Source: a virus
Length of the DNA: 42,726 nt
Virus record (IMG/VR): IMGVR_UViG_3300029566_000029
Direction: 5' to 3' (one strand)
How positions within the stretch are numbered: position 1 is the first letter of the stretch; every line of letters starts with the position of its first letter. The position numbers were made by a program, and so were the translations under genes. The notes below the pieces were generated by a model that saw nothing but the letters and a program-made list of their open reading frames with translations, made no database searches and was not told the DNA's origin. Of this stretch, positions 27,551-37,060 are shown one piece after another.

Positions 27551-27734
27551 TGGGTTCCTCCTGTTCGTTCTGCCATTCCCAGGCATTGACTTCTATAATG
27601 CAGTTCTCGCAGCCGATAATCTCATTGCCCTGACGGTACAGGGTTTCACATTCATCGCCGCAGATTGGGCAGATGGGGCAGTTATCATCAGATGGTGGAA
27701 ATGGGTTATCTTGATGGCCATAAAAGCTGGTCAT
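27537..27734 (-). CDS. Small zinc-ribbon protein (65 aa)
   Basis: CPICPICGDEC ... CENC. The ORF is coupled to both neighbours. Confidence 0.6.
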   Translation of the reverse strand: MTSFYGHQDNPFPPSDDNCPICPICGDECETLYRQGNEIIGCENCIIEVNAWEWQNEQEEPNEFI

Positions 27735-28699
27735 TCTGCGGCCTCCTGTCTTCCTTCATCATCAGAAAAATGCAGCTCCATCAAGTCAGCAATCGCAAGG
27801 TACTCTTTGGCGTATTTGCTGTCTCCGTGGGTTTTCTTGACAATCTCGCGGAACTCCGCTAAATCGCCATAAAAGCAACCGCACTGCACGCGGAGAATTT
27901 TATCCTTGCAGCGAAAAAATGTGGTCGCGCGAAAATATCGGCCAAAGCCTTCAACGACGGCGTAGTCCGCATTGCCGTAGACCTGCGCATTGCCGGAGAT
28001 TCGCGCATCGTCGGAGACCGACGCATTGCCGGAGATTCGCGCATTGCCGTAGACCTGCGCATTGCCGGAGACCCACGCATCGTCGGAGACCGACGCATTG
28101 CCGTAGACCTGCGCATCGTCGGAGACCGACGCATTGCCGTAGACCGACGCATTGCCGGAGACCCACGCATCGTCGGAGACCGACGCATTGCCGTAGACCT
28201 GCGCATTGCCGGAGACCCACGCATCGTCGGAGACCGACGCATTGCCGGAGACCTGCGCATTGCCGGAGATTCGCGCATCGTCGGAGACCGACGCATTGCC
28301 GTAGACCGACGCATTGCCGGAGACCTGCGCATTGCCGGAGACCCACGCATCGTCGGAGACCGACGCATTGCCGGAGACCGACGCATTGCCGGAGACCTGC
28401 GCATTGCCGGAGATTCGCGCATCGTCGGAGACCGACGCATTGCCGAAGACCGACGCATTGCCGGAGACCTGCGCATTGCCGGAGATTCGCGCATCGTCGG
28501 AGATTCGCGCATCGTCGGAGACCCGCGCATTGCCGGAGACCCACGCATTGTCATCGTTGGAGAGGTTTTCTTCCTTTTCCACAAAGCCCCCAAGTTCGCC
28601 AGCTCTTATGGTACCGAAATCGACAATAGCCTTGATGCGGAACAGCTTATTACCGAAAGCGTTTGTTATAAATTCATCGGTGAGTTCAAATTTCTTCAC
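27731..28699 (-). CDS. Hexapeptide-repeat (left-handed beta-helix-like) early protein
   Basis: The start is GTG after AAGGAGGA. A 50-aa N-terminal domain precedes about 32 consecutive hexapeptides of type [ND]-A-x-[VI]-[SYF]-[GD]. An 80-aa C-terminal domain follows. Confidence 0.8.
   Translation of the reverse strand: MKKFELTDEFITNAFGNKLFRIKAIVDFGTIRAGELGGFVEKEENLSNDDNAWVSGNARVSDDARISDDARISGNAQVSGNASVFGNASVSDDARISGNAQVSGNASVSGNASVSDDAWVSGNAQVSGNASVYGNASVSDDARISGNAQVSGNASVSDDAWVSGNAQVYGNASVSDDAWVSGNASVYGNASVSDDAQVYGNASVSDDAWVSGNAQVYGNARISGNASVSDDARISGNAQVYGNADYAVVEGFGRYFRATTFFRCKDKILRVQCGCFYGDLAEFREIVKKTHGDSKYAKEYLAIADLMELHFSDDEGRQEAAE
27974..28549. repeat. 18-bp tandem repeat array (about 32 units) inside the hexapeptide-repeat gene
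   Basis: The units are variants of GACGCATTGCCGGAGACC / GCGCATCGTCGGAGACC. The array lacks stop codons in nearly all frames, which generates the spurious track ORFs 27859..28593, 27919..28629, 27951..28544 and 28314..28850. Confidence 0.95.
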
Positions 28700-29130: not shown

Positions 29131-29328
29131 TTACTCCTTTCTTAAAAGGTCGTCAATCGTGCAGTGGTAAAGCTGCGCGATCTTGGGGAGAAGGGCGGCG
29201 CGGGGAGCATAAGAGCCAGTTTCCCAGTTATAAACAGTAGCGTCTGAAACCTTTAAAGCTGTCATAACCTGTTGAACGGAAAGCCCAGCGGATATGCGCG
29301 CCTTGCGAAACCCAGTTTCATTCGACAT
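29131..29328 (-). CDS. Cro-like XRE-family HTH regulator
   Basis: FRKARISAGLSVQQVMTALKVSDATVYNWETGSYAPRAALLPKIAQLYHCTIDDLL is a classic HTH_3 pattern. The gene is divergent from the CI-like gene. Confidence 0.85.
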   Translation of the reverse strand: MSNETGFRKARISAGLSVQQVMTALKVSDATVYNWETGSYAPRAALLPKIAQLYHCTIDDLLRKE

Positions 29329-29356
29329 TATTTCACCTCCGAATACTAAGTTTAGC

Positions 29357-29385
29357 TTGACAACTTAGCAAAGCGGTTGTATTAT
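29357..29385 (+). promoter_or_regulatory. Rightward promoter TTGACA-17-TATTAT
   Basis: The -35 is at 29357-29362 and the -10 at 29380-29385, with an exact 17-nt spacer. An operator abuts the -35 and another lies in the spacer. Confidence 0.6.
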
Positions 29386-29459
29386 TGAATTGCGATATAC
29401 AATAATTTTTGTAGGCCCACAACAGGTTTTGCGGGTTCTGCTTTTGCTTTGCTAAACTT

Positions 29460-29488
29460 AGTATATCCTAAGTTTAGCAAAAAGTCAA
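29460..29488 (-). promoter_or_regulatory. Leftward promoter TTGACT-17-TATACT
   Basis: On the minus strand the -35 is at 29483-29488 and the -10 at 29460-29465, with a 17-nt spacer that contains an operator copy. Confidence 0.6.
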
Positions 29489-29546
29489 TGCATAACTTAG
29501 CATTTCCTAAGTAGGGCAAAATCTGCACAAAAGGACGGATTTTGCT

Positions 29547-29924
29547 ATGAGTGAACAAAAAACACCGCTTGATAATGCACCCATTGATAACGCACCGATT
29601 ATTAAAAGAATAGAAATTCTGCTTGCAGTGAAGGAAGCTACAAAAGCAGACTTTTACAAACAGACAAGCGTATCATCGGCAACTTATGCGCAATGGAACG
29701 CGAACCAGTATAAGCCAAGCAGGAAAAAGCTACAGGCGATAGCTGAATATTTCGGCGTAACCGTTGACTACTTGTTGACGGGGGAGCAAAAAGAAAACCC
29801 CACCAGCGTTGCCGCTGATGGGGTGGATGAGCTTGATAAAGAGGCGCTGAACATTATGCACCAGCTGCCGCCGGAGAAGCGGGCGGCGGGTCTGGCGATG
29901 CTGCGAGGGCTTTTAAATAATTAA
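29547..29924 (+). CDS. CI-like XRE-family repressor without a peptidase domain
   Basis: The HTH_3 core is IKRIEILLAVKEATKADFYKQTSVSSATYAQWNANQYKPSRKKLQAIAEYFGVTVDYLL. The protein is only 125 aa and has no S24 Ser/Lys module. Confidence 0.8.
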   Translation: MSEQKTPLDNAPIDNAPIIKRIEILLAVKEATKADFYKQTSVSSATYAQWNANQYKPSRKKLQAIAEYFGVTVDYLLTGEQKENPTSVAADGVDELDKEALNIMHQLPPEKRAAGLAMLRGLLNN

Positions 29925-30367: not shown

Positions 30368-31123
30368 ATGCCGAAACCGTTAGTCTTTTGGCGTACTGAT
30401 GAAGAGGATGACTATGTACACACAGAAAAAGACTGTGTAGAAATAGTCAATGCAAAGACGGTACAATGTGGGGCGATTGAGGATGCGCAACGGAGCGGGC
30501 ATACAAGAGCTTGCCCATACTGCCAGAGAGCGCGGAATTTACCAGAGAGAAAAGAAGCCGCTGTTGTAAAAATTAAGGCGGACGCGCCAGCAGTACAAAA
30601 AGCTCCCGTATTGATTGCAACGCTTGCAGCTGTTGCGTGTACATGGCTGTGTTGCTTGTTATACTATAATGAGCAAAGCACAGATATAAAAAATGCTGCA
30701 TATAACGATGGGTATGTTGCAGCAGAAACGGATTATTCGGAAACGTACGAAAGCCGTTACCGCGAAGGGTATGACACAGGTAAATCCGCAGGTTATGACT
30801 ATGGAAAACGCGAAGGATATACAAGCGGATACGCTGAAGGATATACAAAAGGGAAAGATTCTGTAGATACCGATTCAAGCTATCAGGACGGATATAACAA
30901 CGGCTATAACAAAGGATACGATGCCGGTTATGATGACGGTGCCGGAAGCTATAGCCAATACAGTGCACCACAAAGCAGTTATACATATACTGTTTATATC
31001 ACCGCAACAGGGAACAAATATCATGCGGCGGGGTGCCAGTATCTTAAAAAGAGCAGTATCCCTATAGATATAAACCAAGCAATATCGCAAGGATACACGG
31101 CATGCAGTCGATGCAATCCGTAA
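30368..31123 (+). CDS. Membrane moron protein: duplicated His/Cys motif domains, one TM helix, GY-repeat region
   Basis: RBS AAGAGGTGG. The N-terminus carries YVHTEKDC...ACPYC. The TM segment is VLIATLAAVACTWLCCLLYY. Repeats include EGYDTGKSAGYDYGKREGYTSGYAEGYTKG...GYNNGYNKGYDAGYDDG. The C-terminus carries KYHAAGCQYL...GYTACSRCNP. Confidence 0.7.
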   Translation: MPKPLVFWRTDEEDDYVHTEKDCVEIVNAKTVQCGAIEDAQRSGHTRACPYCQRARNLPERKEAAVVKIKADAPAVQKAPVLIATLAAVACTWLCCLLYYNEQSTDIKNAAYNDGYVAAETDYSETYESRYREGYDTGKSAGYDYGKREGYTSGYAEGYTKGKDSVDTDSSYQDGYNNGYNKGYDAGYDDGAGSYSQYSAPQSSYTYTVYITATGNKYHAAGCQYLKKSSIPIDINQAISQGYTACSRCNP

Positions 31124-31228: not shown

Positions 31229-32371
31229 ATGGCAAGAGCAAAAGCGCGGGCCGATGGGCTGATTGAACGAACAAAAACCTACGACGGCAAGCGGGTACAC
31301 TTTTACGGCAAGACCGCGAAAGAGGTCGCCGCAAAAATTGAAGAGTACGAACGCCAGCGGGAAGAAATGAAAGAGAACGGCCCACTGTTTGAGGATGTGG
31401 CCGGTGAATGGTGGGAGACCCATTCAAAAAATATCAAGACAGGCGCTGAAAGAGCCTACAAGGGCAGCTACAAGGCCGCGCTGGAAGAGTTTAGCGGGTA
31501 CAGAATGAAAGAGATAACCCCTGCTGTGGTGTCGCTGTGGGGCGAGAAATTCAAGGCCGCAGGCTATGCAGGGAAGACGGCAAGCAACGCCCGGAGCGTG
31601 TTGTCTTGCGTGTTCAAGTTTTGGTGCGTCCGGGATGGCGAAACATACAACCCGGTAACAGTTACAGATTTGCCGCGAGGAATGAAAAAGGAGCGCCGGG
31701 AGCCTCCAACGGTGGAACAGCTGGAAACGGTCAAGGCACACCCGGAAGGGTTCGGGCTGTGTGCCTGGCTGTTCATGTACACCGGCTGCAGGTTGGGCGA
31801 GGTGCTGGCTCTGCAGTGGGGGGATGTGGATTTTGAAAACAACAAGATCGTCGTCAACAAGGAAGTCGCATGGGTAAATGCGAAGCCCGTTGTACAAACA
31901 CCGAAAACCGCAAACGGTGTGCGAGTAGTGCCGCTGCTGACACCGCTGCGGGCCGTGCTGGAGCCGTTGAAGGGCGGCAAGAATGATTTTATATTAAGCG
32001 GGAAAAAACCGCTTAAAAGCTACGAATACCATAATAATTGGCTGCGCTATTGTGTTGCTGTCGGCATGGCTGAAATAGATGCAAAAGCAGAGGCAGCACG
32101 AGAACGGAAGCGGGCCGCAGCTGCCGGAGGGTCAGAACGGAAAAAGCAGTGCAAGACGCACTGCTACAAGGCCAGCGTAACGGCACACCAGTTCCGGCAC
32201 GAGTATGCCAGCATGTTATATGCTGCAGGCATCGGAGAAATGGAAGCTCAAAAGCTGATGGGGCATGCCGATATATCTACGACACGGAAAGTTTACACGC
32301 ATATCCGAGAACGACAGCTAAACGGAGCGGCGGAAGCTCTCGAAAAATTTATAAACGATAATACGAAATAA
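31229..32371 (+). CDS. int: Tyrosine recombinase / phage integrase
   Basis: The catalytic region is GCRLGEVLAL...HQFRHEYASMLYAAG...LMGHADISTTRKVYTHI (R...H-x-x-R...Y). The gene lies adjacent to attP. Confidence 0.95.
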   Translation: MARAKARADGLIERTKTYDGKRVHFYGKTAKEVAAKIEEYERQREEMKENGPLFEDVAGEWWETHSKNIKTGAERAYKGSYKAALEEFSGYRMKEITPAVVSLWGEKFKAAGYAGKTASNARSVLSCVFKFWCVRDGETYNPVTVTDLPRGMKKERREPPTVEQLETVKAHPEGFGLCAWLFMYTGCRLGEVLALQWGDVDFENNKIVVNKEVAWVNAKPVVQTPKTANGVRVVPLLTPLRAVLEPLKGGKNDFILSGKKPLKSYEYHNNWLRYCVAVGMAEIDAKAEAARERKRAAAAGGSERKKQCKTHCYKASVTAHQFRHEYASMLYAAGIGEMEAQKLMGHADISTTRKVYTHIRERQLNGAAEALEKFINDNTK

Positions 32372-32621: not shown

Positions 32622-32693
32622 TCTACGACTTAATTACGACTGTTCAAAATAATAAAGCCGCCCAATATGAGCGGCTTCTTGTTCAGTCGTAAA
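32622..32693. repeat. attP arm-type repeats, right arm
   Basis: TCTACGAC occurs at 32622 and ATTACGAC at 32633, 11 bp apart. An inverted copy, GTCGTAAA, lies at 32686-32693. Confidence 0.6.
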
Positions 32694-32850
32694 GTTCATT
32701 AAACCATATCGGACCGAAGCGGTAGCTGATGACGTAGCCGGAGCCGGACGGGCCGACGGGTTGCGCGTTGAGCATCGCAGCGCGACATCCAGCAGCGAAG
32801 GACGCCGCCAGCGCGGCGGCGATGATGATGGCGGCAAATGCTTTCTTCAT
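32683..32850 (-). CDS. Small lipoprotein (55 aa)
   Basis: ATG 32850 follows AAGGAGG. The signal peptide and lipobox are MKKAFAAIIIAAALAASFAAGC. It is the last gene before attP. Confidence 0.7.
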   Translation of the reverse strand: MKKAFAAIIIAAALAASFAAGCRAAMLNAQPVGPSGSGYVISYRFGPIWFNELYD

Positions 32851-32855
32851 GGTGT

Positions 32856-33233
32856 TTAGTCCTCCTTGTTGGCTCTTCGGATGATCTCGGCCAGAATCTT
32901 GTCGCGGTTCTCGTTTGTGGCGGGCAGCATCCAATCGAAGTCAAGCACCAGGCGCTTGCCGCTCTCGTGTAGCTTGGTGGTGGGGTTGTAGCGGCCCCAG
33001 CATCCGCGCTCATCGTAAACGTAAACATCTACAGACCAGTAGGACGGCAGCACGTAGGAAATGAAGCCGTGACGGTGCCAGAGGTTGGGCAAGCTATTTT
33101 TATAGCTGTTGTCGGGGTGGATGGCGGTAAAATCAACCGCGACGGTTTCGCCGCGCGGGGTAGTCCCGGCGAAGTTGTAGGTGGTGAGCGTGGCGGTTCG
33201 CTCTTGGATGGTGCAATCTTTCAAGTCGATCAT
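32856..33233 (-). CDS. Hypothetical protein (125 aa)
   Basis: ATG 33233 follows AAAGGAG. The 174-aa track version lacks an RBS. Confidence 0.6.
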   Translation of the reverse strand: MIDLKDCTIQERTATLTTYNFAGTTPRGETVAVDFTAIHPDNSYKNSLPNLWHRHGFISYVLPSYWSVDVYVYDERGCWGRYNPTTKLHESGKRLVLDFDWMLPATNENRDKILAEIIRRANKED

Positions 33234-33303: not shown

Positions 33304-33768
33304 TCAGCGGTGGACAAGTCCATAATAGAAGTGCTGCAGGCCGTGACGGACAAAAGCCATATATAGCAGCCCTTGTGCATCGCTGCTGTGCGGTTCGCCC
33401 ATCAAAAAACCCTTGTGACCATCGCGGCGCAGATCGCGCGGCAGGCTGTACGGTGGCATGCAGTTCAGCATATCGTCATACACATCGGCGGTAATGGCCT
33501 GGCCTGGGCGGGCGTTAAACGTTCCACTGCGCTCCCAGTCGGCGCGGGTGTAGGTGCCGGCGGTGGGCCGGTCGGCGGCCAGGTCGCAGTAGTGGTTGAA
33601 AATCAAGCGGGCGTCCTTCGGGTCGTGGGTGTGGTAGCACTCGATTTCCAGGCCGTCGGGGTACATGGCCATTACTTCAATATAGCCACATTCGGCGGTG
33701 AGGTCTGCCGCGTCGATGATGATCTTGCGGCCTTGCCAGGTGGTTTCGGTGTGGTGTAGGGTTTTCAT
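33304..33768 (-). CDS. Hypothetical protein (154 aa)
   Basis: ATG follows AAAGGAG. I recognise no motif. Confidence 0.65.
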   Translation of the reverse strand: MKTLHHTETTWQGRKIIIDAADLTAECGYIEVMAMYPDGLEIECYHTHDPKDARLIFNHYCDLAADRPTAGTYTRADWERSGTFNARPGQAITADVYDDMLNCMPPYSLPRDLRRDGHKGFLMGEPHSSDAQGLLYMAFVRHGLQHFYYGLVHR

Positions 33769-33834: not shown

Positions 33835-34368
33835 TCAGGCGGGAATGGTTTCGCGGTCGCGGGTCTGGTAGCTCTGGCCGCTGTACTTGTTATAGATGTC
33901 TTGGTAGCTGGCTTTACGGTTCCGGCGGCTGGTGTCGCCGGTGGGGTGCCAGTAGTACTTGCAGCGGTTAGCAGACCAACGGAAACCGAGCTTCTCGAGG
34001 GTGTGAAGCCACTTGTGGTTTGTGTCGGCCCAAATCCAGGAGCCGACAACGTCGAACTGCAAACCGGGGCACTTGGCCAGCTCTTCGACCATCTTGACGG
34101 TCTCTGCATCTTGCGCGGCCTTGGCGGCATCATCTGCCGCTTTGGTCTGCTCGTACTGCTGGCGGCCTTGCTTGGCCTGCTCACTGCAGAAGCGGGGAAG
34201 CGTGGGCTTCAGCTCGTCCCATTCGGCGTTGATTTCCTGCATGTCGGAGACGCTTCCGCCGTGATCGGGGTGATGCTTGCTGGCTAGGTCTCGATACATC
34301 GCGGTGCCTTCGGTGATGGTGCTGGGGCGGGGGTTAAACCATTTATATGTTTTATATGTGGTAGTCAT
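33835..34368 (-). CDS. J-domain (DnaJ-like HPD) protein
   Basis: ATG 34368 follows AGGAGG. The J-domain core is YRDLASKHHPDHGGSVSDMQEINAEWDEL, with HPD encoded at 34264-34272. The C-terminus is GSWIWADTNHKWLHTLEKLGFRWSANRCKYYWHP. Confidence 0.7.
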   Translation of the reverse strand: MTTTYKTYKWFNPRPSTITEGTAMYRDLASKHHPDHGGSVSDMQEINAEWDELKPTLPRFCSEQAKQGRQQYEQTKAADDAAKAAQDAETVKMVEELAKCPGLQFDVVGSWIWADTNHKWLHTLEKLGFRWSANRCKYYWHPTGDTSRRNRKASYQDIYNKYSGQSYQTRDRETIPA

Positions 34369-34419
34369 TTTGTAGGCCTCCTGTTTTGTTTGGTGGGGTT
34401 GTTTGCTTTCGATGTCTGT

Positions 34420-34448
34420 ATTATACATGCTAGCATGAACAATGTCAA
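34420..34448 (-). promoter_or_regulatory. Leftward consensus promoter TTGACA-17-TATAAT for the J-domain operon
   Basis: On the minus strand the -35 is at 34443-34448 and the -10 at 34420-34425. The 17-nt spacer contains the palindrome CATGCTAGCATG. Confidence 0.7.
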
Positions 34449-34522
34449 CATGCTATCATGAAGATTGGAGAAATGCACAATAATGCTAGCATGAATTTAT
34501 GCGATTTGTACATGCTTGCATG
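34426..34522. promoter_or_regulatory. Four palindromic operators (CATGCTAGCATG family)
   Basis: The copies are 34426-34437 CATGCTAGCATG, 34449-34460 CATGCTATCATG, 34482-34493 AATGCTAGCATG and 34511-34522 CATGCTTGCATG. Confidence 0.75.
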
Positions 34523-34544
34523 ATTCGGCGCTCTGTGCTATAAT
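34516..34544 (+). promoter_or_regulatory. Rightward promoter TTGCAT-17-TATAAT for the RHH gene
   Basis: The -35 is at 34516-34521, inside the operator 34511-34522. The -10 is at 34539-34544. Confidence 0.65.
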
Positions 34545-34574
34545 GTGGGTACTATACAAAAGGAGGCACGCAGA

Positions 34575-34775
34575 ATGTCCACCGATGCAAAACGGGCCGG
34601 GAATGCGCGATACTTGGCAAAGCTGAAAACTATTACAGTAAGGATGCAGCCGGATACAGCGGAAACTATCCAGCAGGCAGCAGCAGCAGCCGGGGAAAGC
34701 GTGAACGGCTATATCCTGGCGGCGATTGATGAGCGCATGCAACGCGAAAACCACGATAAACCGAAAAACACTTGA
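34575..34775 (+). CDS. Ribbon-helix-helix (Arc/Mnt/CopG-like) repressor
   Basis: ATG 34575 follows AAGGAGG. KTITVRMQPDTAETIQQAAAAAGESVNGYILAAIDERM fits the beta-strand/helix/helix pattern. Palindromic operators lie adjacent. Confidence 0.7.
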   Translation: MSTDAKRAGNARYLAKLKTITVRMQPDTAETIQQAAAAAGESVNGYILAAIDERMQRENHDKPKNT

Positions 34776-34801
34776 CAAAATCGCACTTGCATGCTAAAAT
34801 G
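34772..34801 (+). promoter_or_regulatory. Rightward promoter TTGACA-17-TAAAAT plus fifth operator copy
   Basis: The -35 at 34772-34777 overlaps the RHH stop codon. The -10 is at 34795-34800. CATGCTAAAATG at 34790-34801 matches the operator at 10 of 12 positions. Confidence 0.6.
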
Positions 34802-34897
34802 TGTATAATGAGCGAACCACGCGAGGAAGCGAGCTTCCGCGACGGGGCTCACTCATTATACAGTTTTAACGTATCAACGCGAAAAATTGGGTTTCTG

Positions 34898-34928
34898 GCG
34901 TCCAGCTTTACCGCTGGGCGCTTTTTTT
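34898..34928 (+). terminator. Intrinsic terminator in the leader upstream of terS
   Basis: A 9-bp stem, GCGTCCAGC / GCTGGGCGC (one G-U), is followed by TTTTTTT. It ends 26 nt before the terS ATG. Confidence 0.75.
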
Positions 34929-34953
34929 GTTGCTATAAAAGGAGGGCGGCAAC

Positions 34954-35508
34954 ATGGCAGAAAAGAAGGCGGCGCAGGCCGTCCAGCAGATGAGCAAGGC
35001 GCAGCAGGGTGTTGAACGAGCGAGACGGCAGGCAGAGCGCGGGGAACTGGTGGACAGTCTCGGCCGAGTGGTTAAACCGTCGCAGATTGCGGCGCTGTCT
35101 CCAAAATCCATAGGAGACCAGCCAGCAGAACGCAAGCGGGCAATTCAACAGGCAGGAGCAGCAGCAAGCAACGAGCTACAAGCGAAGAGACGGACTATTA
35201 AGGACATCTACAACGACTTACTGCAGCAGCCAGACGACATTACAGGGATAGAGGATCAGGAGCTAGCAGAGAGGGCACAACAGCGAGCACAACAGCAGGG
35301 GAAAGCAATAACCGTATACGACAGTATTGCTATTGCGATGGCGGCAAAAGCGAAGGCCGGAGACGTCAAAGCGGCGGTGTTTGTGCGGGATTCGGCAGGG
35401 GATAAACCGGCTGACCAGATGGAGATTACAGCCGAAGCGGTGACAGATGCGGATAGAGAATTGATGCAGAATATACAGAAGCGGCTACAAAAGAACGATA
35501 ATGCGTAA
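34954..35508 (+). CDS. Terminase small subunit candidate
   Basis: RBS AAAGGAGGG. The product is 184 aa and charged. The AKAGDVKAAVFVRDSAGDKP motif is recalled from Firmicutes TerS proteins. It is the first gene of the packaging block. Confidence 0.5.
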   Translation: MAEKKAAQAVQQMSKAQQGVERARRQAERGELVDSLGRVVKPSQIAALSPKSIGDQPAERKRAIQQAGAAASNELQAKRRTIKDIYNDLLQQPDDITGIEDQELAERAQQRAQQQGKAITVYDSIAIAMAAKAKAGDVKAAVFVRDSAGDKPADQMEITAEAVTDADRELMQNIQKRLQKNDNA

Positions 35509-35935
35509 ATTTGCTGTTCGCTAAATAAGTATTTAGCGAAATACAGCCGAGAAAAGCGGGCACATGCAGCATAAAGAGGAAGCCGAAAGCCTGCCGGGGG
35601 TGCATTGCATCAAGGCGGGGCGGGGCTTCTTTTTTTATGGGGCTGTCCAGCGGCAGGCAGCAGGGGACCGGGGGTACCCCCTATAAAGGGGGAGGCGGGG
35701 TTCATAGACAGCGCGGCCGGGTACGAATATGTCAGTTCCCCCACCGAATACAAAAATAAAATTTACCCACCCCCCCATGCAGGGACATGCCGAAAAAACT
35801 GACAGGTTCCCCAGAACAAAAATGATATAAAGTATATCCCGGCGCGGAAGTAAGTTAACCTCCTACTTACTATTTGGATTAGGGCCGTCCGCTTCAAGAC
35901 CCAGCGGCCACTATATGAAAAATGTGAGGGTAATT

Positions 35936-36202
35936 ATGAAAGAGTTACGCGACACTATTCAGGGTATGACAAGCGGTGATTACAACCAGCGTTTCATTGC
36001 GGAGTACGAGCAGACAAAAATTCGTTACGAGAAACTAAAAGCACTAAATACAAAAATTGAAGCACATAAACGTAACGTTTATACTTTTGAGCCGAAACAC
36101 GACTGCCCATACGACGTTTTAAGAGAACAGCAGACTGCAATGGGTCAATATCTGCACATTCTGGAATTAAGGGCTGTTCTCGAGAACATTGAATTGAATT
36201 GA
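35936..36202 (+). CDS. Small helical protein (88 aa), crAss001_48-related-like family candidate
   Basis: ATG 35936 lies 6 nt after GTGAGGG. The pattern is EYEQTKIRYEKL...LREQQTAMGQYLHILELRAVLENI. The insert is AT-rich and has its own terminator. Confidence 0.55.
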   Translation: MKELRDTIQGMTSGDYNQRFIAEYEQTKIRYEKLKALNTKIEAHKRNVYTFEPKHDCPYDVLREQQTAMGQYLHILELRAVLENIELN

Positions 36203-36240: not shown

Positions 36241-37060
36241 GCTGCATAGCTGACCATTTTGGTGACGTTACCAAGATGGTATGAGCGCTGCGTTCCGAAG
36301 CAACGGCGCGGCAAAGGTGCAAGACCTATGTGCAGTACCAATGCCGATGATACGGGTAAAGGTAGCAGGGCCGGACGCTGCAATTGTGTTCCCCGTTAGG
36401 CAACCGCCACGAGCCTACTGACAGTGCGTAACATGTGGCGGGTTCTGCAATACAGGGTGGCTCTCTGCCGTGGAAGTCGGCCAACTTTAGCTGAAACATT
36501 GCTATGGATTGCCAAGCCAAACAGGTTCATGCCGATATGCCCCGCTAAAGAAATTTGCAGGGCAGAGCGCATGAGCCTTATATGCCAACATAGCTTAACT
36601 GGTAAAGCCGGGCCTTATGACAGCATAGCTGCGGGTTTAGTTGTAGGTTCAAATCCTGCTGTTGGCGAAAGCTGGGTCGCTCCCACCGGTGAAAGCCCGG
36701 CGCAGGCAAAACGCGATAGATCAACCTAAACGCTGTAAGCAAAGCGGCAAGCCGATCAGGAGCGCGGCGCGATGGCAAGACGCAACGGGACTTCGAGAGC
36801 CTGAAAAAGTCTGCCCGGCATCTGCTTGTGCGGACTCCGTTACTGACGCAGTTACGCATCGCCGAAACCCATTACATCAAAGCAGAACCGCGAATCCGCA
36901 CGCGGGGGATAAATGCAGCGGATGAAAAAAACGTGTGGACAGCAGGCACGTTAAATTCTGACTGTACAAAAGCGTTGCGGATTTGCTCACCGCAACGGGT
37001 GAGACCGGCACAGCATAAACCGGTAGGGCGGGTATGGGGAATTTTGAGGTAGAGAAATGG
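36241..37060 (+). ncRNA. Candidate large structured ncRNA (boundaries approximate)
   Basis: No RBS-preceded ORF is present on either strand in an otherwise tightly packed genome, and the composition is GC-rich. Helices paired by hand are 36253-36280, 36285-36309, 36402-36444 and 36973-36997. Many GNRA-type loops are present, plus an embedded tRNA-like cloverleaf. Confidence 0.5.
36584..36667 (+). ncRNA. tRNA-like element with non-canonical anticodon arm
   Basis: The 7-bp acceptor stem is GCCAACA / TGTTGGC. The D-arm is GCTT-AACTGGTA-AAGC. The T-arm is GTAGG-TTCAAAT-CCTGC. The anticodon position holds a 29-nt arm (GGGCC...GGTTT with an inner CAGC-ata-GCTG hairpin) in place of a 5-bp stem and 7-nt loop. 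CCA is not encoded. Confidence 0.5.

Follow-up and report, generated by a model that had tools for sequence, protein, structure and literature searches.

A predicted Arc-like ribbon-helix-helix autorepressor at the divergent promoters of an accessory operon in a temperate phage

The viral record IMGVR_UViG_3300029566_000029 of IMG/VR, a stretch of 42,726 nucleotides (nt) hereafter referred to as the window, carries a gene for a ribbon-helix-helix (RHH) protein of 66 amino acids that is divergent from an operon of accessory genes. Four copies of a 12-base-pair (bp) palindrome, O1 to O4, are placed on and between the elements of the two divergent promoters, P_L and P_R. Based on this arrangement, on the fold of the protein and on the co-variation of protein and palindrome in related phages, we consider it quite probable that the protein is an Arc-like autorepressor, which gives the accessory operon a burst of expression and then shuts it off. 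An earlier note on this DNA had described five palindromes over three promoters, and had read the node as a second, immI-like immunity region in which one repressor gates an accessory or antirepressor operon, its own gene and the packaging and late genes. Here, we describe the putative operators, the protein and their relatives, and weigh this reading of the node against others.

Results

The leftward promoter P_L (34420..34448, minus strand) is TTGACA-17-TATAAT, which matches the consensus at all 12 positions, and its predicted start is near 34413. The rightward promoter P_R (34516..34544, plus strand), TTGCAT-17-TGcTATAAT, has an extended -10 element; it drives the RHH gene and is followed by an AAGGAGG ribosome-binding site and by the ATG of this gene at 34575. 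Four promoter-like sites with at least 11/12 matches are found in the window against 0.15 expected, and P_L and a third promoter, P3, are two of them. The region of O1 to O4 between the divergent promoters measures 150 bp. O1 (34426..34437), CATGCTAGCATG, is the perfect copy. It occupies the -10-proximal part of the P_L spacer and abuts the -10 hexamer, a position that is kept in relatives. O2 (34449..34460, CATGCTATCATG, one mismatch) abuts the upstream edge of the P_L -35 hexamer, which is bracketed by O1 and O2. O3 (34482..34493, AATGCTAGCATG, one mismatch) is located between the two promoters and is the weakest and most variable copy among relatives. O4 (34511..34522, CATGCTTGCATG, one mismatch) lies over the -35 hexamer of P_R, TTGCAT.

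All four copies fall within 97 bp. A repeat finder placed them in one shared orientation, with the extended form ACATGCTAGCATGA and start-to-start spacings of 23, 33 and 29 bp. The chance model consisted of 300 first-order Markov simulations of the window, in which 0.19 matches to CATGCTAGCATG with at most one mismatch are expected per window, compared with 4 observed; two such sites within 100 bp of each other occurred in 0 of the 300. The cluster of O1 to O4 is far beyond chance. In an alignment of relatives, the hexamers of P_L are kept across specificity groups and the TGnTAnnnT of P_R is invariant (alignment A1), and in every specificity group the operators sit precisely on promoter elements. 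The five 12-mers of the earlier note are indeed present, with 0, 1, 1, 1 and 2 mismatches at 34426, 34449, 34482, 34511 and 34790, respectively, and it had rightly placed one in the spacer of a perfect leftward promoter and one over the -35 hexamer of the RHH gene's own promoter. Its observation thus stands for the first four sites, while the fifth is doubtful, as described below. Many relatives, whatever their RHH type (e.g. L010, L018, L037 and L058), also carry an inverted repeat, TTGCACA(A/G) ... TTTGTGCA, around O3. In the window, this repeat is degenerate (34473-34505, ATGCACAA ... TTATGCGA); a second, conserved factor may bind there.

The RHH gene (34575..34775, plus strand) was compared with Pfam, PHROGs and NCBIfam, and its product was modelled with AlphaFold2 (AF2) and searched with Foldseek. 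The protein matches Pfam family TacA1 (PF08681, DUF1778) with 28.1 bits against a cut-off of 21, and the match spans positions 2-36 of the 80 positions of the profile, which is the RHH part only. The NikA-like, HicB, RHH_1 and Arc families of Pfam were found below their cut-offs. PHROGs gave one unnamed family and an 'Arc-like repressor', and NCBIfam gave only MobA, YlcI and TraJ, all sub-threshold. The AF2 model, made with 32 homologues, has a predicted local distance difference test score (pLDDT) of 87. After an N-terminal helix [3-16], the chain is extended [17-25] and then forms two further helices, [26-38] and [43-61]. The best Foldseek match of this model is Arc of phage P22, with a target TM-score of 0.76-0.92, and further matches are AmrZ, CopA, KacA, TacA, NikA, ParG and CopG; the top matches are all RHH proteins. 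Profile match and model together confirm the RHH fold that the earlier note had assigned to this protein. Its homologues are named DUF1778 in their sources, and no named family beyond DUF1778 was confirmed by Pfam, PHROGs, NCBIfam or Foldseek. In one relative (L035, 1903-2205), the homologue has 100 amino acids and is encoded beside ArdC. Its helix-helix-like repeat is followed by another one (AAKAAGETVPAFLLRAIRETAERD), pointing to a tandem or extended RHH.

Relatives of the node were collected as 47 viral contigs that encode RHH proteins with 45-100% identity to that of the window, and further loci were added via the terS-like gene, a conserved hairpin (both described below) and a metagenome scan. 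Where the strand KT[IL]T[VLI]R is kept, at identities as low as 57%, the relatives have 3-4 CATG..CATG sites with unchanged offsets. The more diverged RHH proteins have the same promoter scaffold, each with its own repeated palindrome in 3-4 copies at the same positions. At least 10 RHH variants were found in this way, each with its own palindrome. Besides those of type A, these are CATGWWWCATG in type B, ACGTCNACGTG in type C, CATGGYGCCATG in type D, CATGTAGACATG in type E, ATACTACGGAGTAT in type F, AACGTTAACGGTT in type G, GCATACTC-TGAC-GAGTATGC in type H, ATAAGTCGACTTAT in type I and CGATAGTATGC in type J. The repeat finder recovered the operator families without prior knowledge and with the same 23- and 33-bp spacings. 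A count matrix of cognate and non-cognate sites is diagonal, and type-A loci have no cognate site with at most one mismatch outside the control region in 180 kb.

Some types differ in only part of the protein and of the operator. Types C and I have in common the strand DSITIRP and the operator centre GTC[GT]AC; what sets them apart is the N-terminal segment and the flanks of the operator. Conversely, types with the N-terminus MSTDAKRA.NA have common outer CATG half-sites and different centres. Recognition of the outer operator bases may lie with the N-terminal segment, and that of the central 3-6 bp with the sheet. The earlier note had proposed that the conservation of the palindromes in related phages be checked. 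For O1 to O4, they are kept with the protein type and co-vary with the RHH variant, which is strong indirect support, and the strongest available, that the RHH protein binds O1 to O4. The four palindromes upstream of the RHH gene can be described as predicted RHH operators that overlie P_L and the gene's own promoter.

The primary switch of the phage is located elsewhere, at 29134-29924, and consists of a divergent pair of helix-turn-helix proteins, Cro-like (65 amino acids, minus strand) and CI-like (125 amino acids, plus strand). Promoter-like sites of this switch are found at 29357 (plus strand, 11/12) and 29488 (minus strand, 10/12), and among relatives the CI-like protein varies mainly in its N-terminal 40 residues. 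CI and RHH types reassort: the exact CI of the window is found with a type-C RHH protein, and one CI type is found with RHH types A, C and G. The RHH node is therefore separate from the CI/Cro-like switch at 29.1-29.9 kb, as the earlier note had it, and assorts independently of it.

The operon that P_L would transcribe has four genes, all on the minus strand. The first (33835..34368) encodes a protein of 177 amino acids that combines a predicted minimal J-domain with a C-terminal alpha/beta domain. The HPD motif of the J-domain does not vary among 18 homologues. The Pfam DnaJ match is sub-threshold (E = 0.037; 1.2e-4 in relative L044), and in the AF2 model the N-terminal helix hairpin matches J domains in Foldseek with a probability of 0.8-0.99 and E >= 0.27. 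The C-terminal domain of this model had no match in the PDB by Foldseek. The protein is probably a co-chaperone of DnaK, and it is nearly identical across different CI types. The second gene (33304..33768, 154 amino acids) and the third (32856..33233, 125 amino acids from MIDLK) have no family match. The last gene (32683..32850), which adjoins attP, encodes 55 amino acids with a signal peptide and a lipobox (FAAGC). It has a sub-threshold match to the lysogeny pheromone AimP, with 28.1 bits against a cut-off of 35, in the signal-peptide part only; its product may be a superinfection-exclusion lipoprotein or a secreted peptide. Relatives have the same cassette with other cargo, and in L035 the cargo is ArdC (ArdcN and MPTase-PolyVal). 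No Ant, KilA, KilA-C or BRO match was found among the cargo with Pfam, PHROGs, NCBIfam and PADLOC, and a defence or anti-defence identity of the cargo was likewise considered and set aside when PADLOC gave no match. The cargo, which the earlier note had taken for a possible antirepressor operon, can thus be described as a probable J-domain protein and uncharacterised open reading frames (ORFs), although a novel antirepressor could still be among them.

The third promoter, P3 (34772..34800, plus strand), is TTGACA-17-TGcTAAAAT, with 11/12 matches, and its -35 hexamer overlaps the stop codon of the RHH gene. The fifth 12-mer (34790..34801, CATGCTAAAATG) matches the operator at 10 of 12 positions and overlaps the P3 spacer and extended -10. 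The expectation for matches with two mismatches is about 2.5-2.7 per window, and the integrase gene contains another one, at 32204; with about 2.6 of them due to chance, the fifth site by itself carries no significance. Of its ten matching positions, six belong to the TGnTAnnAT core of an extended -10, and the extended -10 of the RHH gene's own promoter already matches the operator at 8/12. The five bases before the TAAAAT of P3 are polymorphic (CATGC, TATGC, CGTGC, CGTAG, AGTAG and others). Among 67 unique haplotypes, classed by the operators that they actually carry, the CATGC allele was found in 13/26 of type A, 3/8 of type B, 5/12 of type C, 2/4 of type I, 0/3 of type F, 0/8 of type G and 0/4 of type H. 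Half of the type-A phages are without the allele, and the non-cognate types B, C and I carry it at a similar frequency. In a first sample, the fifth site had looked enriched with type-A RHH proteins, with p = 0.003 when counted by locus and 0.03 by unique sequence; in the 67 haplotypes, types B, C and I have the allele about as often, and the enrichment was dropped as evidence. A cognate site at P3 was found in none of types B, C, F and G, and none was apparent in the type H sequences read. Most likely, the segment [34790-34801] represents one frequent allele of P3, in its spacer and extended -10, and not a conserved operator, and its operator likeness is incidental; a functional operator in this phage is unlikely here.

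Downstream of P3, a conserved hairpin of 61 nt (34802..34862, plus strand; outer arms TGTATAATGAG and CTCATTATACA) would form the 5' end of the transcript. A second TATAAT (34804-34809) lies in its outer arms, 3 bp past the -10 of P3. The hairpin is followed by an intrinsic terminator (34897..34929, plus strand), with a 10-bp GC-rich stem and a T7 run, which is predicted to end both the RHH and the P3 transcripts and which stands directly before the ribosome-binding site of a terS-like ORF (34954..35508, plus strand, 184 amino acids). The name terS comes from position only; Pfam, NCBIfam and the PDB gave it no support, and the only match is a weak PHROG of unknown function. The second TATAAT, the hairpin and the terminator are kept in 25 unique sequences, which have few compensatory changes in the hairpin and in the upper terminator stem. 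A promoter scan gave no promoter-like site between the terminator and the ribosome-binding site of the 184-amino-acid ORF. P3 does not, therefore, point straight into terS, as had been claimed, since the conserved hairpin and the terminator lie between them. All the relatives whose downstream region was read have an intrinsic-terminator-like hairpin and a T-run after the RHH gene, even those without P3. A recombination boundary is found inside the 3' end of the RHH gene, such that the terS-side module brings with it the tail QRENHDKPKNT and P3.

P3, the 5' hairpin, the terminator and the terS-like gene form a separate conserved module, in which P3 would make a terminated RNA of about 120 nt unless the terminator is overridden. 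Such a pairing of a strong promoter with a short terminated RNA is reminiscent of small-RNA units or of the PR' type in lambda. The 5' hairpin could stabilise the RNA, as has been proposed for the leader of ardC576 (PMC6294495); alternatively, the RNA could act as a small RNA or be a lambda PR'-like antitermination unit. Rfam gave no family at gathering score in 34380-35000, with sub-threshold chance matches only. As a candidate antisense regulator, the RNA had no complement of 13 nt or more in the window, and its 12-nt matches are shared terminator-like sequence. Candidates for an antiterminator or late activator of P3 were also sought, and no Q, RinA, ArpU or sigma-like match was found with PHROGs and Pfam among the approximately 40 ORFs of the window, most of which have no family.

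The integrase gene [31229-32371] is just upstream of the cargo operon. In a metagenome-assembled genome (MAG) assigned to Bulleidia, the ORF of the 55-amino-acid lipoprotein is the first gene at the left end of the prophage, beside host atpD/atpC, and the operon reads outward. The prophage of this MAG (L080, 1-1900) lies just downstream of atpD/atpC, and the stretch there is tRNA-like when translated; the stretch after atpC is likely the attachment site. Three prophages were all that a genome scan with a single protein gave; their MAGs are assigned to Bulleidia, Acutalibacteraceae and Faecalibacterium, and Bulleidia is a tentative host. No DNA match to a known phage was found in 50,697 phage records.

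Other features of the window were observed at a distance from the node. A TTGACA-17-TATACT promoter-like site (31227-31199, minus strand, 11/12) reads leftward from just upstream of the integrase start, antisense to an ORF of 251 amino acids [30368-31123]. The segment [27734-28699], minus strand, in the leftward early operon near the Cro-like gene, encodes a beta-solenoid protein of 322 amino acids with YdcK repeat, bactofilin and hexapeptide matches. The terS-like and TerL genes are 1.7 kb apart. Between them are an ORF [35915-36202] with a crAss001_48-related domain (Pfam PF21825, E = 3.8e-15) and a tRNA gene [36583-36668], which ARAGORN calls, oddly, tRNA-His with anticodon ATG at 86 nt, and which matches the Rfam tRNA family with 47 bits. 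A full-length match to the Rfam D12-methyl motif [36973-37036], with 90.9 bits against a gathering score of 57, precedes the large terminase gene (37225) by about 190 bp and is not beside a methyltransferase.

Discussion

We infer from this arrangement that the 66-amino-acid Arc-like protein binds O1 to O4 between the divergent promoters and represses both of them. O1 and O2 bracket the -35 hexamer of P_L and O4 covers that of P_R, and occupancy should therefore shut both promoters. When the DNA enters a cell that is free of repressor, the strong P_L would fire. The RHH repressor would then accumulate and silence P_L and P_R, by negative feedback. The same repressor would keep the operon of a lysogen at a low set level, and would likewise act on the copy brought in by a phage of the same type, silencing it. 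The cassette, which may be described as P_L bracketed by operators, a weaker autoregulated P_R and a terminator, is portable. As noted above, we consider this burst followed by silencing quite probable.

Some points weigh against this reading. An entry burst and a steady low expression in the lysogen would be indistinguishable from sequence. The J-domain call, on which a role for the cargo would build, leans on the HPD motif, a sub-threshold Pfam match and weak Foldseek E-values. The consensus sequences of the cognate matrix were taken by eye from the same regions in which they were counted, although the repeat finder recovered them independently. Finally, a weak, lineage-specific effect of the RHH protein on P3 is conceivable.

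The wider scheme of the earlier note, in which the RHH protein gates the accessory operon, its own gene and the packaging and late operon through a fifth operator at P3, is in our view quite unlikely. In favour of the scheme, the 10/12 match, 215 bp from the RHH start, coincides exactly with the spacer and -10 of a strong promoter, it is as good a match as the weakest O3 variants of relatives, and it looked enriched with type-A RHH proteins in the first, smaller sample. However, about 2.6 such matches are expected per window, the extended -10 core forces six of the ten matching positions, and the CATGC allele accompanies types A, B, C and I alike. The other types read have no evident cognate site at P3, and between P3 and the terS-like gene stands a conserved terminator with no promoter after it. 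Control of the late block by the RHH protein is thus not upheld, as the fifth site does not track the RHH type and P3 is followed by a terminator. We judge in much the same way a true immI-type region as in P22, in which the RHH protein would repress an antirepressor of the CI-like repressor and the specificities would amount to heteroimmunity. The fold is closest to Arc, a strong repressed promoter is placed beside the RHH gene, and the assortment of at least 10 specificities independently of CI is what one would expect of an immunity determinant. Against this, no cargo gene matches a known antirepressor in the databases searched, the cargo varies (J-domain protein, ArdC and unknowns), the J-domain protein is near-identical across CI types, and neither a second, Mnt-like repressor nor a sar-like antisense RNA was detected. 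Of the interpretation in the earlier note, the RHH autorepressor node is therefore retained, as is its separation from the CI switch, while the gating of the late operon and the antirepressor cargo are not, and no second, Mnt-like repressor or family-level antisense-RNA match was found near the node.

A regulator of morons (lysogenic conversion genes), which would keep a steady low expression of the lipoprotein and the J-domain protein in the lysogen with no role in entry, is possible but somewhat doubtful. It would fit an operon at the extreme end of the prophage, reading outward beside host atpC and transcribed independently of CI, whose last gene encodes a lipoprotein-like peptide. A perfect consensus promoter with two bracketing operators exceeds, however, what a low set-point needs, and the ArdC cargo of a relative points to an entry function. 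This reading is in any case compatible with burst and silencing and does not exclude it. Far less probable, and in our view very improbable, is an orphan TacA/DUF1778 antitoxin, or a partition or transfer RHH protein (ParG, omega, NikA, MobA) with the palindromes as a centromere or an oriT-like site. The TacA1 match above cut-off, the DUF1778 names of the homologues and the NikA-like, MobA and TraJ matches, all below cut-off, would point there. But the TacA1 match covers positions 2-36 of 80, a toxin-binding tail is missing from the end of the protein, the neighbouring genes scanned gave no match to a GNAT toxin, ParA or relaxase, and the sites lie precisely on promoter elements in every specificity group. 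We tentatively consider, in addition, that the cassette may be a second heteroimmunity determinant that is independent of CI. The RHH protein of a resident prophage would act on any newly arriving phage of the same type and keep its entry operon silent, which would encode a J-domain protein that recruits DnaK or, in relatives, ArdC; this pressure would have driven the diversification into at least 10 orthogonal pairs. This role stays live, though unproven, because independent assortment and many specificities fit an immunity-like determinant.

The at least 10 natural and apparently orthogonal pairs of RHH protein and operator in one scaffold are a ready data set from which the RHH recognition code could be studied and orthogonal repressor parts drawn. 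Types C and I are useful for this code, as they have a common strand and operator centre, and a different N-terminal segment and flanks. The present analysis also corrects the claim that the same repressor gates the late operon; P3 belongs to a separate module.

The P3 module may be compared with PR'-qut-tR' of lambda, a comparison that we use as a lead only. Both have a near-consensus promoter and a short terminated transcript just upstream of packaging genes, and in both a second -10-like hexamer follows the real -10, at P3 only 3 bp after it. No Q-like antiterminator was found in the window.

A small RHH autorepressor that acts on its own and on a neighbouring promoter is a textbook arrangement, as with Arc, CopG, omega and Reg576. 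The closest sequence family of the 66-amino-acid protein is that of the DUF1778 antitoxins TacA, KacA and AtaR, with which it has in common the N-terminal RHH DNA-binding domain; these antitoxins also autoregulate through palindromic operators. Unlike them, the protein described here has no C-terminal toxin-neutralising segment and no adjacent GNAT toxin, and has a divergent cargo operon instead. The downstream neighbour of its gene is P3 with the terS-like ORF, and no GNAT match was found among the neighbours scanned.

The best structural match, P22 Arc, is likewise a phage RHH repressor whose operator overlaps strong divergent promoters, and immI and the present node are both regulatory nodes separate from the primary repressor. 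In immI, Arc limits its own operon after a burst. Arc is, however, encoded by the first gene of the ant operon and binds one 21-bp operator as a tetramer, while here the repressor gene is divergent from the cargo and four 12-bp sites are present. P22 immI also has Mnt, Ant and the sar RNA, which have no equivalent found here; only one RHH gene is in the ORF list for the 32-37.5 kb around the node. We do not assign the node to immI because no equivalent of the antirepressor, of Mnt or of sar was found.

The regulatory logic resembles that of Reg576 of the Bacillus pumilus plasmid p576 (PDB-id 6GYG), an experimentally characterised RHH autorepressor that allows a transient burst of ardC and other establishment genes on entry, in a manner like zygotic induction (PMC6294495). 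Its operators abut the -35 hexamer or lie in the spacer of sigma-A promoters with TGn (PMC6294495), and the establishment genes of this plasmid family are highly variable (PMC8708921). No homology was detected, as 6GYG was absent from the PDB sequence matches (E up to 10) and from the top 50 Foldseek matches; we do not place the protein in the Reg576 family because it has no such sequence or top structural match. The two systems also differ in several respects. Reg576 belongs to a conjugative plasmid, has direct dual heptamers (TTATCCC) at four dispersed promoters and has an extra C-terminal helix, while the phage cassette has 12-bp palindromes at one divergent pair of promoters and its protein has an extra N-terminal helix. 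Reg576 and the predicted repressor described here are both small RHH proteins of Firmicutes, and the operators of the one and the putative operators of the other are at the -35 hexamer or within the spacer of sigma-A promoters that carry TGn as an extended -10. Reg576 controls variable accessory or establishment operons, with ArdC among them, and ArdC is here the cargo in the relative L035. The logic of a burst and then self-silencing, as described for Reg576, is in the phage cassette predicted from its layout. The present node would thus extend the burst-then-silence logic of plasmids (PMC6294495) to temperate phages of gut Firmicutes, with a cargo that includes a putative J-domain protein and ArdC.

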